From Escherichia phage vB_Eco_J-01: a DNA stretch of 64,000 nucleotides. This document shows positions 49,968-56,857 of this stretch, piece by piece. The translations under genes were made by a program, and so were the position numbers. The number at the start of each line of letters is the position of its first letter. Position 1 is the stretch's first letter. The notes below the pieces were generated by a model. The model did no database searches, was not told the DNA's origin, and was given only the letters and a program-made list of their open reading frames with translations. The stretch lies in the sequence record PQ438393.1. One strand, written 5' to 3'.

Positions 49968-49988
49968 GGCGGGGAATACTCCCCCGCC
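49968..49988 (-). promoter_or_regulatory. cassette-type GC palindrome without a promoter
   Basis: GGCGGGG-GAGTATT-CCCCGCC between two ORFs; no U tract. Confidence 0.5.
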
Positions 49989-49995
49989 TCATTAA

Positions 49996-50166
49996 TTACT
50001 CTTCATCGTCGCCGTTATAGTATTCAATGCCGTTTTCATCGGTTACAGTAATATTAACGCCACCGATAGCAACACGATCACGGGCAAACGTCATGGCTTC
50101 ATTTAAATCTTCAGACCAAAAAATATTGTGACCTTTGCGCGATACGTAAAACATAGTCGGGATCAT
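49996..50166 (-). CDS. small acidic protein, 56 aa (not in ORF track)
   Basis: ATG after AAGAGA; hand-translated MIPTMFYVSRKGHNIFW... Confidence 0.45.
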   Translation of the reverse strand: MIPTMFYVSRKGHNIFWSEDLNEAMTFARDRVAIGGVNITVTDENGIEYYNGDDEE

Positions 50167-50188
50167 GATTTGTTCTCTTTTGTTGTGA

Positions 50189-50248
50189 GCGGGAAACCAT
50201 TTCCCGCCCTATGTGATAAACTTTACTACGTTGTTTGCCTAGTGTCAA
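50189..50248 (-). promoter_or_regulatory. PeSL-like cassette
   Basis: TTGACA, 17 nt, TAAAGT, TTATCACATAGG, GCGGGAAATGGTTTCCCGC. Confidence 0.6.
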
Positions 50249-50249
50249 A

Positions 50250-50534
50250 TTATTTTTTAATGTTTTGCCCTACAAAATTGATCACTTCCTTAAGCTGTTT
50301 CTCAGTCATGATCGTGCCTGGTAATTCTTCTTTGATTTCTTCCGGTAGATAGATATTACCGCGCCAGGTTAATAAACAACCGTTTTGATCTTCGCAGATA
50401 GAATAAGAGAAGATCCACTCATTATCATTCTCAAGCTCCCAAAAGCACAAAAAATCTTCTTTCCCTAAATTTTCAACGGTTAAACATAATCCGCGACGTG
50501 CTGCATAGTTGGAAAGTGCTTTTGTGATCTTCAT
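50250..50534 (-). CDS. hypothetical protein
   Basis: ORF track; start directly after cassette. Confidence 0.5.
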   Translation of the reverse strand: MKITKALSNYAARRGLCLTVENLGKEDFLCFWELENDNEWIFSYSICEDQNGCLLTWRGNIYLPEEIKEELPGTIMTEKQLKEVINFVGQNIKK

Positions 50535-50554
50535 AGCTTATCTCTTCTTTTAAG

Positions 50555-50616
50555 GCGGGGAAACCATTTCCCCGCTCTATGAGATACAATATACTACCCG
50601 TTAGGTGTGCTGTCAA
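50555..50616 (-). promoter_or_regulatory. PeSL-like cassette
   Basis: TTGACA, 17 nt, TATATT, GCGGGGAAATGGTTTCCCCGC; -35 abuts upstream stop. Confidence 0.6.
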
Positions 50617-50940
50617 TCAATAATCTTCAATATTTTCTACATTGACAAAAGTATGTTTATTTTCTAAGTTTTCGCCGTACCATTGCCCCATGTTGACTTC
50701 TGCGGTGCGCAACCAGGACATGCCGCGTTCTATCTTTTTACTTGCAATCTCGATCCGGCTTTTGCATAGTGCTTTCGCTTGCAATGTAAAAACACTATTG
50801 CCCTGTAATGCTTCCAGGTCATCATGTGCAAGGCGATACTCTTTAAAGCCTGATTCTATCATTTCAATAGCATCAAGTAAACGCGCGCGATGATAGAAAA
50901 AATCAGAGTTATCCAAATAAACACCGATCACAGATTTCAT
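50617..50940 (-). CDS. hypothetical protein
   Basis: ORF track 50617..51000; ATG 50940 after AAAAGGG. Confidence 0.45.
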   Translation of the reverse strand: MKSVIGVYLDNSDFFYHRARLLDAIEMIESGFKEYRLAHDDLEALQGNSVFTLQAKALCKSRIEIASKKIERGMSWLRTAEVNMGQWYGENLENKHTFVNVENIEDY

Positions 50941-50983
50941 AATTTTACCCTTTTGTTTGCGGCCTTTGCCGTTTTCAAGATAT

Positions 50984-51011
50984 AGTTTAAAGCATAACAA
51001 AAAATTGTCAA
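50984..51011 (-). promoter_or_regulatory. sigma70-like promoter
   Basis: TTGACA, 16 nt, TAAACT. Confidence 0.45.
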
Positions 51012-51040
51012 GCCTTTAAAGCGTACAACTATAAAACCTA

Positions 51041-51160
51041 TTAAAACACAATGTATAACAACATGGCTATAGTAGCAATACAACATAAAGCCATGCTTGT
51101 TTTCCTTCCTTCCTCGTATGCTGGATTTATTACGCTATATTGTACGGGAATAATTTTCAT
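51041..51160 (-). CDS. small membrane peptide, 39 aa (not in ORF track)
   Basis: ATG after AAGGAA; hydrophobic C-terminal half. Confidence 0.4.
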   Translation of the reverse strand: MKIIPVQYSVINPAYEEGRKTSMALCCIATIAMLLYIVF

Positions 51161-51169
51161 GCTGTTTCC

Positions 51170-51265
51170 TTAATGTCTTAAAACGTGGTTTACAATAGAA
51201 ACAAGCATACAGAAGAAAAAAGATCCCGTCAATAAGATACCGAAAAATAAATGTAAATAGGGCAT
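51170..51265 (-). CDS. small membrane peptide, 31 aa (not in ORF track)
   Basis: ATG after AAGGAG; MPYLHLFFGILLTGSFFFCMLVSIV... Confidence 0.4.
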   Translation of the reverse strand: MPYLHLFFGILLTGSFFFCMLVSIVNHVLRH

Positions 51266-51269
51266 GGTT

Positions 51270-54904: not shown

Positions 54905-55008
54905 ATTATAGCTTACTGATTTCAGGTGTCAAGTGATTTTTATTTCACCTTTGAGGCGTTGCCCCGCTCTATGTGGTATATATTACGGGGCTTGTTTGCA
55001 TATGTCAA
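54905..55008 (-). promoter_or_regulatory. tandem promoters, second with degenerate hairpin
   Basis: TTGACA-16-TATAAT at 54905..54932; TTGACA-17-TAATAT plus CCACATAGA box at 54953..55008. Confidence 0.5.
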
Positions 55009-55011
55009 GCC

Positions 55012-55566
55012 TTACACAATGCAATTTTCATAATTTTTTAAGGCTTGTCTTTTTTCCTCTTCTGTCGGCATGTATGGCTGGATCTCTTCCTCTTCCAGGG
55101 TAGGCATGATTTCTTCCTCTTCCTCCTGGTCGCCCTGGTCTTCCTCTTGCGCTATGGTAACAAGTTTATTGATCTTCTCCTGGGCTTTAATTAGTTTTGC
55201 ATCTAGCACCATTTTAGCGGTGTTGTATACAGTCCAGGCCATGCGCTTTTCTTCGTATGCCTTATCTAGTGCGGCTAATTTAGCGGGATACTCTTCCAAC
55301 ACCTTAAAAGCCGGATCAATGCTGTACAAGGGATTATTTTTAGCGTCATCGCTTGGATCTGCGGCGCTTGCAATGTCAGCGTTACCATTCGCCAGCCATC
55401 CAGGACGAACGGATCGCGTCCTGGTGTTGCCGTTGCTCTTTGCCGCTCGATTTCCTATCTGCTCCCCGCTATACCCTACCATGTGATCGATCATGTCATC
55501 TGGTATTATGCGCGGATCATTAGCATCATGCTTTACCCAGGACTGGATCACATATTCACGCCCCAT
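55012..55566 (-). CDS. hypothetical protein with poly-Glu C-terminal region
   Basis: ORF track; AGAGG RBS. Confidence 0.5.
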   Translation of the reverse strand: MGREYVIQSWVKHDANDPRIIPDDMIDHMVGYSGEQIGNRAAKSNGNTRTRSVRPGWLANGNADIASAADPSDDAKNNPLYSIDPAFKVLEEYPAKLAALDKAYEEKRMAWTVYNTAKMVLDAKLIKAQEKINKLVTIAQEEDQGDQEEEEEIMPTLEEEEIQPYMPTEEEKRQALKNYENCIV

Positions 55567-55567
55567 G

Positions 55568-55828
55568 TTAGTTCGCCTCTTCTGTTAGTAGTTTACAGAC
55601 CTTAAACATGCTTGCCGCGTCTTTTGACGGTAGCCAGCCTATGCGATACACTCCAGGGCCTGGATTAGTTATATCCGTTAATTGAGCGTTGCGATGATTA
55701 AAAATAGTGTAACCGCCGCCAGCACGGGGATAAACATTATCTTTAAACCTGATAGCGTATCTCGCCAGGTCGAACGTTGTAGCATGTTCAAAAGCGATCA
55801 CATTATCAAAAACTTTTAGAAAAAACAA
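55568..55828 (-). CDS. hypothetical protein
   Basis: ORF track; TTG start after GGAGG. Confidence 0.45.
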   Translation of the reverse strand: MFFLKVFDNVIAFEHATTFDLARYAIRFKDNVYPRAGGGYTIFNHRNAQLTDITNPGPGVYRIGWLPSKDAASMFKVCKLLTEEAN

Positions 55829-55830
55829 GA

Positions 55831-55977
55831 TTATCCTCCCCAGCGTTTAAAGCCCGTTGCACGGTTATTTTTTAACTCTCGTTTTAGTCTCTTGCAACGG
55901 TTTACAAGTGCAAACCGTGCCGGAGTCGTAACAGTAGCGCCGTTTTTGGTGTGAATACTCATTACATATTGTTTCAT
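55831..55977 (-). CDS. small basic protein, 48 aa (not in ORF track)
   Basis: ATG directly after cassette hairpin; hand-translated; stop 2 nt before next TTG start. Confidence 0.45.
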   Translation of the reverse strand: MKQYVMSIHTKNGATVTTPARFALVNRCKRLKRELKNNRATGFKRWGG

Positions 55978-55996
55978 AAAGTTTTATCCTATGTAA

Positions 55997-56049
55997 GCGG
56001 GAACTATTCCCGCTTTAAGATAGCTTATCAGGTTTTCGTGCAATGTCAA
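55997..56049 (-). promoter_or_regulatory. PeSL-like cassette
   Basis: TTGACA, 16 nt, TAAGCT, GCGGGAATAGTTCCCGC. Confidence 0.55.
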
Positions 56050-56055
56050 CCGTTT

Positions 56056-56418
56056 TTATTCGTAAATTTTACCGCTTTCTACCCATACCATAACACGGCG
56101 CATGTTATCCCATGCATCTTGTCGCAGATTTAAGGCATGCAATTCTTCCGTGGTGCTCATGCCTGGTACGGGCTTGCTGTATGTTACAAAGAGATCGCCA
56201 GCATATTCATAAGCCAGGGTAAGATCACATTGAATCATCTTTTTAATCATAGCATCAAGCATCATATTAGCGGCATGTTGATCACGTTTCAGCGGTAACG
56301 TTGCGATCTGTGTGCGATAGCTTTCGATCCGTGCATCCACTGCACCACGCGAAAGGTTTTTCACGTCATCGCGGAAAGATACCAGATTAAACATGATAGT
56401 ATTGATTTGCTTGCTCAT
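56056..56418 (-). CDS. hypothetical protein
   Basis: ORF track. Confidence 0.5.
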   Translation of the reverse strand: MSKQINTIMFNLVSFRDDVKNLSRGAVDARIESYRTQIATLPLKRDQHAANMMLDAMIKKMIQCDLTLAYEYAGDLFVTYSKPVPGMSTTEELHALNLRQDAWDNMRRVMVWVESGKIYE

Positions 56419-56440
56419 TGCATTACCCTTTCTTTGATTT

Positions 56441-56501
56441 GGCGGGAAACCATTTCCCCGCCTTATGTGGTATATATTAACAAATTATTTTTCAGTGTCA
56501 A
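56441..56501 (-). promoter_or_regulatory. PeSL-like cassette
   Basis: TTGACA, 16 nt, TAATAT, ATACCACATAAGG, GGCGGGGAAATGGTTTCCCGCC. Confidence 0.6.
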
Positions 56502-56504
56502 GCC

Positions 56505-56777
56505 TTAAAGCAAAAACGCTACATCTTGCGCTTTTAGTGTAGTGTCGATCATTTTCGGGCTTTTATAATCCACAAATCGCGCGGTTTTTTCAATAGCGAA
56601 ACCGAGATAATCTTGTTTATTGAAATTACATTCTTTTTTAAACGTTTCCCGTGCCACTGTGATCGCTGCGTCCAGGGATAAACGCCCATCAATATTGATG
56701 TTAGCGAAAGATCCGCCACCGCGCATAGGTTTACCAGTGATGCCAGCTACGATCATTGATGCGCTATATGATGCCAT
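56505..56777 (-). CDS. hypothetical protein
   Basis: ORF track. Confidence 0.5.
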   Translation of the reverse strand: MASYSASMIVAGITGKPMRGGGSFANINIDGRLSLDAAITVARETFKKECNFNKQDYLGFAIEKTARFVDYKSPKMIDTTLKAQDVAFLL

Positions 56778-56801
56778 GATTATTTCTCTCTTCTGTTATG
56801 A

Positions 56802-56857
56802 GCGGCACTATTGCCGCCCTATGTGATAAACTTTACCAGAATAAAAAACGTTGTCAA
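56802..56857 (-). promoter_or_regulatory. PeSL-like cassette with variant hairpin
   Basis: TTGACA, 16 nt, TAAAGT, TTATCACATAGG, GCGGCA-ATAG-TGCCGC. Confidence 0.55.

Follow-up and report, generated by a model that had tools for sequence, protein, structure and literature searches.

Promoter and stem-loop cassettes in a predicted early gene array of Escherichia phage vB_Eco_J-01 resemble PeSL elements and coincide with points of gene exchange

Promoter-early stem-loop (PeSL) cassettes have been described in the T4-like phages RB49/phi1, PST and nt-1 (Arbiol et al. 2010, PMC2839356; Comeau et al. 2014, PMC4122927). Here we analysed comparable cassettes in a stretch of 64,000 nucleotides from Escherichia phage vB_Eco_J-01 (sequence record PQ438393.1), hereafter the window, in which most of the small genes between 47.9 and 56.9 kb are preceded by a promoter and a GC-rich hairpin. 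Both kinds of cassette comprise an AT-rich stretch, an early sigma70 promoter close to consensus, a GC-rich stem-loop, a Shine–Dalgarno (SD) sequence and an ATG. Both occur in many copies, interspersed with small genes of unknown function, in an early region that is variable, and in both the indel or replacement junctions of close relatives fall in cassettes. The lineages differ, PeSL belonging to Straboviridae and the cassettes studied here to Stephanstirmvirinae and Vequintavirinae. A covariance model of the present hairpins (R1, described below) matched no PeSL of RB49, and the two kinds of cassette have no sequence similarity.

The main structural difference concerns the position of the stem-loop. 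In the variable region of RB49 that we inspected, it occupies the -35/-10 spacer (e.g. TTGACAggggatcggtgatccccTATAAT) or overlaps the -10 box, and the leaders carry no hairpin. It is thus absent from the transcript of its own cassette, whereas the hairpin here starts 9–12 nt after the -10 box, downstream of the predicted transcription start, and is hence transcribed. The PeSL paper lists a minority subclass 'downstream of the -10' (PMC2839356). Conversely, the spacer layout, which is the commonest in RB49, was found in the window only at 57498–57526. Terminator activity and mini-circles have been demonstrated for RB49. We filed them as working like PeSL, that is, as a variant of that kind and not a member by homology, nor a new kind of element.

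The window derives from a phi92-like (Justusliebigvirus) coliphage. Its segment 49500–57200 is matched by 285 phage records in all, with the E. coli myophages Paula, ESCO9 and Nernie matching over the full length at 96–97% identity. Genes between 47.9 and 56.9 kb are small and lie exclusively on the minus strand. The homologous stretch of Paula is an uninterrupted series of small minus-strand genes, each annotated as 'hypothetical', as in the annotations of other relatives, and all ten window proteins tested fell into PHROG families of unknown function only. The map of rV5 shows a long leftward transcription unit running from divergent promoters beside a 'non-coding' box that is free of open reading frames (ORFs) (PMC3606486). 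Its resemblance to the layout here, with a divergent region at ~57.1 kb, led us to infer that 47.9–56.9 kb is an early gene array read by the host polymerase. The array is punctuated by three canonical two-way terminators (47527–47545, 48365–48393 and 52303–52327), which constitute a hairpin family other than that of the cassettes, namely GGGCGC...GCGCCC stems with flanking A- and T-runs and GNRA- or UUCG-type loops.

Each complete cassette reads, in order, an AT-rich stretch, TTGACA-N16/17-TAnnnT, about 10 nt, the GC hairpin, an A-rich leader of 16–25 nt with an SD sequence, and the ATG. Among the best promoter matches (at least 10/12) in 47.5–57.3 kb, 19 of 20 were on the minus strand, fronting minus-strand ORFs, and the 20 nt 5' of the -35 box in 19 promoters had a mean AT fraction of 0.77 against 0.60 region-wide. 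Twelve strong hairpins were located, at 48818–48838, 49968–49988, 50189–50207, 50555–50575, 52864–52884, 53123–53146, 53430–53445, 53744–53764, 54163–54179, 55995–56015, 56441–56462 (with a bulged G) and 56802–56817, along with decayed copies at 49615–49638, 50960–50971 and 54953–54969 and a truncated copy in the 48019 cassette. A first-pass annotation of the DNA had placed the family at 49968–56817; copies do occur there, but the family begins ~1.1 kb further left, at 48818–48838. The four stem variants that it named were all recovered in a scan for perfect GC-rich hairpins: GCGGGAA/TTCCCGC at 54163–54179 and 55995–56015, GCGGCA/TGCCGC at 53430–53445 and 56802–56817, GGCGGTGG/CCACCGCC at 53123–53146 and GGCGGGG/CCCCGCC at 49968–49988. 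Perfect GC-rich hairpins of at least 6 bp numbered 14 in 48–57 kb, compared with 1.4 ± 1.1 in 100 dinucleotide shuffles, and those of at least 7 bp numbered 11, compared with 0.27.

Plain MAFFT alignments placed the 3' arms wrongly, and a gap-free seed with a covariance model (R1, nine copies) was used instead. This model retrieved 13 minus-strand copies within 48.8–56.8 kb and no other match in the 64 kb at E<0.5. Predicted leaders measured 44–50 nt in 11 of the 13 hairpin cassettes, and 37 and 38 nt in the remaining two. The hairpin is the sole strong structure of these leaders, consistent with the RNA 5' hairpin that the first-pass annotation had offered as one option, and the stretch from SD to AUG is predicted to be unpaired. 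Leader fold z-scores ranged from -2.8 to -5.2 in 12 of 13 cases, the non-significant exception being the weak CGGC/GCCG copy at 50960–50971. Scanning 45–59 kb against Rfam 15 returned no relevant family and only weak matches, all far under their gathering scores; one of them, to the L2-Alphaproteobacteria leader (17.7 bits; gathering score 37.8), spans the hairpin at 56800–56819.

The same cassette was present in Phapecoctavirus (tuntematon and PNJ1809-36), a Klebsiella member of Stephanstirmvirinae, Vequintavirus Gotham and Serratia phage ChuuTotoro. Seunavirus FENT2 has it too, more thinly scattered. Judged by sequence, the cassette does not occur outside the phage group of the window (Stephanstirmvirinae/Vequintavirinae). 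Across eight source phages, the covariance model found 72 copies on the sense strand. These comprised 59 distinct sequences and 43 distinct hairpin cores. Of the 72 copies, 59 were preceded by a sigma70 promoter matching at 9/12 or better and seven more by one matching at 8/12. The distance from the end of the -10 box to the stem was 9–12 nt (mode 11) in 66 of 72 copies and was the same in Gotham and ChuuTotoro despite diverged linker sequence, which speaks for a spacing constrained relative to where transcription starts. Between stem and ATG lay 16–25 nt in 57 of 60 copies (median 21), in a leader with 52% A and 17% U. Klebsiella, Enterobacter and Serratia relatives also possess promoters of the T4-type PeSL layout, with a GC stem-loop as the -35/-10 spacer (e.g. 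TTGACAacGGGGCCgaaaGGCCCCATAAT), in sources L004 (10767 and 5236), L006 (16474, 7836 and 1580) and L007 (3142); the one at L004 5236 combines the spacer stem-loop with a downstream hairpin. A literature search found no description of these hairpins in rV5-like or phi92-like phages. The promoter list of the rV5 paper stops 7 nt past the -10 box (PMC3606486), and in the phi92 record the cassette hairpins are unannotated, only coding sequences and ribosome-binding sites being given here.

Pairing within the stems is strongly preserved. The covariation statistics that the first-pass annotation had proposed as a check showed that pairing is kept, with 97.4% of cells paired in the model alignment of the 59 distinct copies from eight phages, compared with 87.5% in shuffles (none of 500 reached the observed value). 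Two-sided changes were observed in seven of nine stem pairs, and the covariation score, 0.286, exceeded those of shuffles (0.123) and of alignments whose 3' partners had been shifted by 1–3 columns (at most 0.081); these values should be read in the knowledge that the alignment was fitted to the structure and that the copies are non-independent. IMG/VR orthologues of a 120-aa protein provided four loci, too few for a tree-aware covariation test. The informative pairs are those of the inner stem, where pair 6 is G-C, C-G or U-A and pair 7 is A-U or G-C. The outer five pairs, GGCGG/CCGCC, are near-invariant, and AAU(G/A)G is common to most loops, with different loops in the Vequintavirus and Klebsiella phage copies (AAGACG, AAAAC, GATAGG and ATTAAT). 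Of the earlier proposal that selection acts on structure rather than sequence, the kept pairing thus stands, while the opposition to sequence is too strong given the conserved outer pairs and loop motif. Likewise, the stems keep their pairing, but the loops, which the first-pass annotation described as changing, mostly share AAU(G/A)G.

How the stems came to co-vary was examined in orthologous cassettes, defined by the downstream gene, which revealed swaps of whole variants beside near-identical genes. In the 50248 cassette, BME3 carries GGCGGCAatagTGCCGC (a GGCA variant) where the window has GGCGGGAAAtggTTTCCCGC, although the gene is 98.7% identical; in the 56501 cassette, phage L012 has the GGCGGCGGAAtacTTCCCCGCC variant, unlike the window, next to a gene that is 99.3% identical. 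When both arms are exchanged together in this way, pairing is preserved without selection and covariation statistics are inflated. Single-step differences between orthologues included two that create G.U pairs on the sense strand (KKE7M in the 50616 cassette and phi92 in the 52922 cassette) and two that leave mismatches, both in the 53184 cassette (tuntematon and PNJ1809-36; G.A and C.A), the remainder being loop changes or slippage in G-runs, the latter at 49968. The covariation pattern is accordingly only partly evidence for stepwise compensatory evolution: of the claim that stems change by compensation, the kept pairing and co-varying stems hold, but much of the variation reflects exchange of whole hairpins and not stepwise double mutation.

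The hairpin at 49968–49988 had been singled out as lying between two ORFs without a promoter, and this was borne out. It sits between ORF 49996–50166 and ORF 49673–49948, starting 3 nt past the stop codons and ending 19 nt short of the ATG of the latter, within a two-gene operon (50166 to 49673) whose downstream gene is conserved. The 48 nt upstream are the 3' end of ORF 49996–50166. The best sigma70-like match upstream, TTGAAT-18-AAGAGT, scores 7/12 and lies inside this coding sequence in the usual register; it looks like a decayed promoter. The hairpin is kept at the site in five relatives (Paula, PNJ1809-36, KKE7M, BME3 and Nernie), with varying G-run length. In tuntematon, the site holds a different but fully paired hairpin (GGCGGGATTAATCCCGCC), which has another inner stem and loop and precedes a different downstream gene. 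The converse case is found at 51623, 52088 and 54932, where a promoter and short leader occur without a hairpin, while the hairpins of 48019, 54668 and 55008 are truncated or decayed. Promoter and stem-loop are therefore separable in both directions, as the first-pass annotation had argued from the promoterless copy.

What that annotation missed, while recognising the hairpin family, is that the cassettes are the crossover points at which genes are gained, lost and swapped. Comparison of 46–58 kb with four close relatives (Paula, KKE7M, BME3 and Nernie; 94–98% identity) yielded 12 junctions from roughly seven distinct events. All 12 had at least one end in a cassette, although cassettes account for ~10% of the region, and at several of them 7–22 nt aligned to both flanks. 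Compared with Paula, KKE7M and Nernie, the window has lost one gene, with the crossover at ...CGTAGGGC between two cassettes (window 47977–47984, exactly at GTAGGGC). A gene-plus-cassette module of Paula that is missing here was delimited by a crossover in the -35 region (49670–49686), and a 268-bp gene module inserted in BME3 by one in the promoter spacer (54199–54201). The cassette at 49594–49676 is a hotspot, with inserts of 165, 253, 258 or 478 bp at 49650–49690 in different phages. Junctions of KKE7M and Nernie map to 53169–53171, in the 53098–53184 cassette, and a BME3 deletion has one end at 56819. Against Phapecoctavirus tuntematon, in which gene order differs, blocks of homology likewise begin and end in cassettes. 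The cassettes thus serve as homology patches for the insertion, deletion and swap of single-gene modules and of hairpin variants. Crossover positions are spread across the ~60-bp unit (-35 box, spacer and linker) and are not specific to the hairpin, which points to ordinary homologous recombination on short repeats and indicates no hairpin-specific mechanism. Selection against junctions inside genes contributes to the pattern in part.

For the role of the hairpin itself, a second described system offers the nearest parallel. Some E. coli mRNAs have a stabiliser hairpin at the 5' terminus, as in the ompA 5' untranslated region, reportedly the subject of work by Emory, Bouvet and Belasco in 1992. 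The ompA hairpin and those studied here have in common a stable stem-loop a few nucleotides from the 5' end (here predicted), a single-stranded leader and an accessible ribosome-binding site. Hairpin stability matches this type, and the 5' overhang, predicted from the -10 position, is ~3–6 nt compared with ~0–4 nt for the ompA type. Unlike the ompA hairpin, those of the cassettes form a family of many copies in which stem base and loop motif are conserved, and one member is operon-internal.

Combining both comparisons, we favour the reading of a PeSL-like cassette whose 5'-proximal hairpin stabilises or insulates early mRNA, a proposal to which we give about even credence. With transcription predicted to start ~7 nt past the -10 box, the stem-loop would follow ~3–6 nt after the start and be part of each early mRNA, which sets it apart from a terminator placed ahead of the promoter. 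As a 5'-proximal RNA structure, it would guard the transcript against 5'-end-dependent decay (RppH, RNase E) and keep the ribosome-binding site free from upstream pairing; in read-through transcripts, it may act as a 3'-exonuclease block or intercistronic element. Selection would maintain the pairing of the stem. Recombination between similar ~60-bp cassettes inserts, deletes and swaps single-gene modules and exchanges hairpin variants, as happens with the PeSL cassettes of T4-like phages.

Several observations weigh against this proposal. No transcription start site, transcriptome or RNA half-life data for the phage group were found in the literature, and the 5' end is a prediction. Work on ompA from the Belasco laboratory is said to make ~3–5 unpaired nucleotides before the stem, counted from the nominal +1, borderline for full protection. 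The array genes without a hairpin (51623, 52088 and 54932) imply that it is not required for expression, and the fixed spacing could in part be the legacy of a shared ancestral cassette inherited whole. Conservation of the GGCGG base and of the AAU(G/A)G loop hints at recognition of specific sequence, which would be superfluous for a pure stability element. Finally, signatures of folding as sense-strand RNA are ambiguous. Sense-strand G.U outnumbered A.C by 24 to 10 cells in raw counts, but by about five to four independent events after collapsing shared variants, and the sense RNA fold was more stable than the antisense one in 43 of 55 distinct copies. Since the G.U cases stem for the most part from a single shared variant (...CCGCTC) with different inner stems, the excess is not decisive for RNA over DNA.

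Four other explanations were weighed against mRNA stabilisation. As an attenuator or terminator, a role proposed for T4-type PeSL stem-loops, the hairpin would damp read-through from upstream promoters and its own strong promoter, thereby limiting small, possibly toxic early genes. The RB49 PeSL stem-loop cut lacZ expression about as strongly as rrnB T1 (PMC2839356), and the cassettes here share every other PeSL feature. In addition, the GenBank record of Paula (L001, LR865361, 3743–10247) labels cassette hairpins as 'terminator'. Those features are mostly antisense to the genes, though, and are best seen as prediction artefacts. The hairpins are GC-rich and intergenic like intrinsic terminators, but a stem-plus-T-run test found no T-run after the stem on the gene (minus) strand in any cassette hairpin and was passed on the antisense (plus) strand by one (52860–52888), and intrinsic termination was rejected for want of the gene-strand U-tract. 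Where the phage does end transcription, moreover, it uses canonical terminators with a U-tract (47527, 48365 and 52303). An efficient terminator ~30 nt past its own promoter would abort its own mRNA, and one inside the 50166-to-49673 operon, where the promoterless copy precedes a conserved second gene, would likewise silence conserved genes, so that we regard attenuation as unlikely. Alternatively, the palindrome might act as DNA, be it as a cruciform or single-strand hairpin, an operator shutting off early promoters, or a target for recombination or a structure-specific nuclease. Both strands fold equally where the palindrome is perfect, as it is in many copies, and the collapsed G.U and A.C counts are nearly even. 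Positions +5 to +25 are the classic place for an operator, with the outer half-sites GGCGG/CCGCC conserved; rearrangement junctions lie in or beside hairpins (47977–47984 and 56819); and the PeSL authors speculated on a stem-loop-recognising protein (PMC2839356). However, half-site spacing varies from 7 to 14 nt among the 43 variants, which suits a rigid dimeric DNA-binding protein badly and led us to reject a dimeric-repressor operator, and crossovers occur anywhere in the 60-bp cassette, as in ordinary homologous recombination. Stems of 7–10 bp with loops of 3–6 nt also extrude cruciforms poorly. Overall, action at the DNA level appears rather unlikely.

A hitch-hiking palindrome with no selected role would be kept perfect by intrastrand template switching, while gene conversion spread a few ancestral variants along with the promoter. 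This would account for the whole-variant swaps at orthologous sites that are otherwise 98.7–99.3% identical, for the several cassettes that function without a hairpin or with a decayed one, and for single-step changes that include unpaired states (G.A and C.A in the 53184 cassette) and G-run slippage at 49968. It fits less well with 43 distinct cores in eight genomes, nearly all well paired, with the persistence of the same -10 distance across genera with divergent linkers and promoter flanks, or with a promoterless copy that is still paired in tuntematon through another inner stem and loop, and we likewise judge it rather improbable. The hairpin could, on the other hand, be an RNA bound by a phage or host factor that marks early transcripts so that they are translated selectively, undergo anti-termination or escape shut-off. 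The GGCGG/CCGCC base and AAU(G/A)G loop, conserved while inner stems differ, exceed the needs of stability, and the position near the 5' end is fixed. No candidate protein was identified, the neighbouring genes all being of unknown function; the loops differ in the Vequintavirus and Klebsiella phage copies; and the conservation is also explicable by recent common descent and gene conversion. Such a factor-binding role seems to us very unlikely.

The individual features, all on the minus strand unless stated otherwise, are as follows. The cassette at 48792–48876 (TTGACA-16-TACTAT) contains hairpin 48818–48838 (GGCGGGAAAtggTTTCCCGCC) and ATG 48794 (39.8 bits; z -3.1). At 50164–50248 (TTGACA-17-TAAAGT), hairpin 50187–50209 (GGGCGGGAAAtggTTTCCCGCTC, one G.U) precedes ATG 50166 (z -4.6), and at 50532–50616 (TTGACA-17-TATATT), hairpin 50553–50578 (core GCGGGGAAAtggTTTCCCCGC) precedes ATG 50534 (z -3.0). 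Next come 52841–52922 (TTGACA-17-TAAAGT; hairpin 52864–52884; ATG 52843; 43.1 bits; z -3.6) and 53098–53184, with promoter TTGCAA-16-TAAACT, hairpin 53123–53146 (AGGCGGTGGaatagcCCACCGCCT) and ATG 53100 (z -5.2). Cassette 53404–53485 (TTGACA-16-TAAAAT) has a hairpin core at 53430–53445 (GCGGCAatagTGCCGC), extended to 53423–53452, and ATG 53406 (z -2.8). It is followed by 53719–53803 (TTGACA-16-TAAAGT; hairpin 53744–53764; ATG 53721; 44.9 bits; z -3.4) and by 54136–54220 (TTGACA-16-TATAAT; hairpin 54160–54183, GAGaGCGGGAAtagTTCCCGCCTC; ATG 54138; z -3.5). In cassette 55975–56049 (TTGACA-16-TAAGCT), hairpin 55995–56015 (AAGCGGGAAtagTTCCCGCTT) starts 7 nt after the -10 box and ATG is at 55977 (z -4.1). 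The series closes with 56416–56501 (TTGACA-16-TAATAT; hairpin 56441–56462, GGCGGGGAAAtggTTTCCCGCC, one extra G; ATG 56418; 34.3 bits; z -2.9) and 56775–56857 (TTGACA-16-TAAAGT; hairpin 56800–56819, GGGCGGCAatagTGCCGCTC; ATG 56777; z -3.7).

Deviating units are interspersed. The cassette at 47942–48019 (-35 box 48014–48019; -10 box 47991–47996; ATG 47944) has a truncated hairpin, its leader reading ...CGTAGGGC|AAATC.... An imperfect hairpin at 49615–49638 (GGGCGgggcaataaggcaaCGCCC) characterises 49594–49676, which fronts a 34-aa ORF (ATG 49596; z -3.8), and a weak 4-bp one (CGGCaaagGCCG, 50960–50971) characterises 50938–51011 (ATG 50940; z -1.3, non-significant). The promoterless hairpin 49968–49988 (GGCGGGGgagtattCCCCGCC; 33.2 bits; z -3.6) occupies 49946–49998, from the stop of ORF 49996–50166 to ATG 49948. 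Promoter-only units without a hairpin are 51570–51623 (TTGACA-17-TAAGAT; 16-nt leader), 52031–52088 (TTGACA-17-TATAGT; 20-nt leader) and 54865–54932 (TTGACA-16-TATAAT; ATG 54867). At 54590–54668 (TTGACA-17-CATAAT; ATG 54592), a decayed hairpin remnant persists in the leader. A remnant cassette without a gene of its own, 54953–55008 (TTGACA-17-TAATAT; decayed hairpin 54953–54969), runs into the 54932 promoter, and Paula retains GGGGCaacGCCCC at its site. The element of T4-type PeSL layout at 57498–57526 is on the plus strand and has a sigma70-like promoter (TTGACA-17-TATACT) with spacer stem-loop 57503–57521 (AAGCCCagggatcGGGCTT). It directly follows ORF 57229–57495, is kept in Paula, tuntematon and PNJ1809-36, and has no Rfam match. 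Beyond this promoter, 57540–57600 is GC-rich, probably structured and free of ORFs, and could be a candidate small RNA.

Further candidates were considered and set aside. The mechanical ORF list starts 48405–48830 (-) at an in-frame AUG of the hairpin loop (GGGAAAUGGUUUCCC). In Paula, this ORF is annotated with a start equivalent to ATG 48794, further downstream, which shortens the product from 141 to 129 aa. The AUG of the AAAUGG loop was in the frame of the gene only at 48830, and ORFs starting in the hairpin were dismissed as an ORF-caller artefact. The 3-nt loops also raised the idea of an N4-type hairpin promoter read by a virion RNA polymerase. This was put aside because a consensus sigma70 promoter is already in register and no N4-like polymerase is known from this phage group. 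RNase III sites were rejected on account of stems of only 7–10 bp, substrates of this enzyme requiring longer ones.

Other repeats and signals were noted around the array and elsewhere in the window. A 15-bp palindrome resembling a Fur box (TGAGAATGATTATCA) had 21 matches with up to two mismatches, against 1.6 expected, clustered in the non-coding flanks of the early array (57760–57867, 46151–46360 and 47239–47311); it could be a candidate site for host Fur or a phage regulator. Three direct repeats of ~70 nt (TTGAACTTTTCATTTT...AAAAACTTTAAATAA) occupy 57889–58094 in the ORF-free 57.5–58.3 kb, and tuntematon has a repeat_region annotated at the corresponding position, rV5 having a 'non-coding' box; they are possibly an origin or a promoter array. 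On the plus strand, 24163–24250, 32080–32160, 12511–12590 and 6777–6830 show consensus-like promoters followed by terminator-type hairpins and then SD and ATG, e.g. AAACCCCCtcaaGGGGGTTT with a T-rich tail. The order is like that of the early cassettes, and the hairpin family is different. Among public records, some named 'Campylobacter phage' (MG065656, MG065689 and similar) are ~95% identical in DNA to the E. coli phage group of the window, and 'Enterococcus phage heks' (MT119359) matches at 92% over ~940 bp at one contig end; these probably reflect mislabelled hosts or contaminated assemblies.

These results extend PeSL-type cassette shuffling to a second, unrelated group of large coliphages, the phi92-like, phAPEC8-like and rV5-like phages, which are widely used in therapy cocktails, and suggest that repeats of a promoter plus a stem-loop offer lytic phages a general means of trading small host-takeover genes. 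They also correct the annotation of hairpins that are missing from the phi92 record and are termed terminators, mostly on the wrong strand, in that of Paula. With their 43 stem variants, the cassettes form a natural collection in which a strong promoter, a 5' hairpin and a ribosome-binding site are combined, suited to testing the effects of 5'-proximal hairpins on mRNA fate, and they point to safe insertion sites for engineering these phages. Speculatively, and with little confidence on our part, the hairpin might exceed a stability role, its conserved stem base and loop, set at a constant distance from the transcription start, making up a 5' tag by which a phage or host factor separates phage early mRNAs from those of the host, for instance to spare them from phage-induced host mRNA decay or to favour their translation, with the same 60-bp unit doubling as a homology patch for gene movement. 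If so, rV5-like and phi92-like phages would have in common a gene-cassette system that works without an integrase and carries its own expression and 'self' signal.

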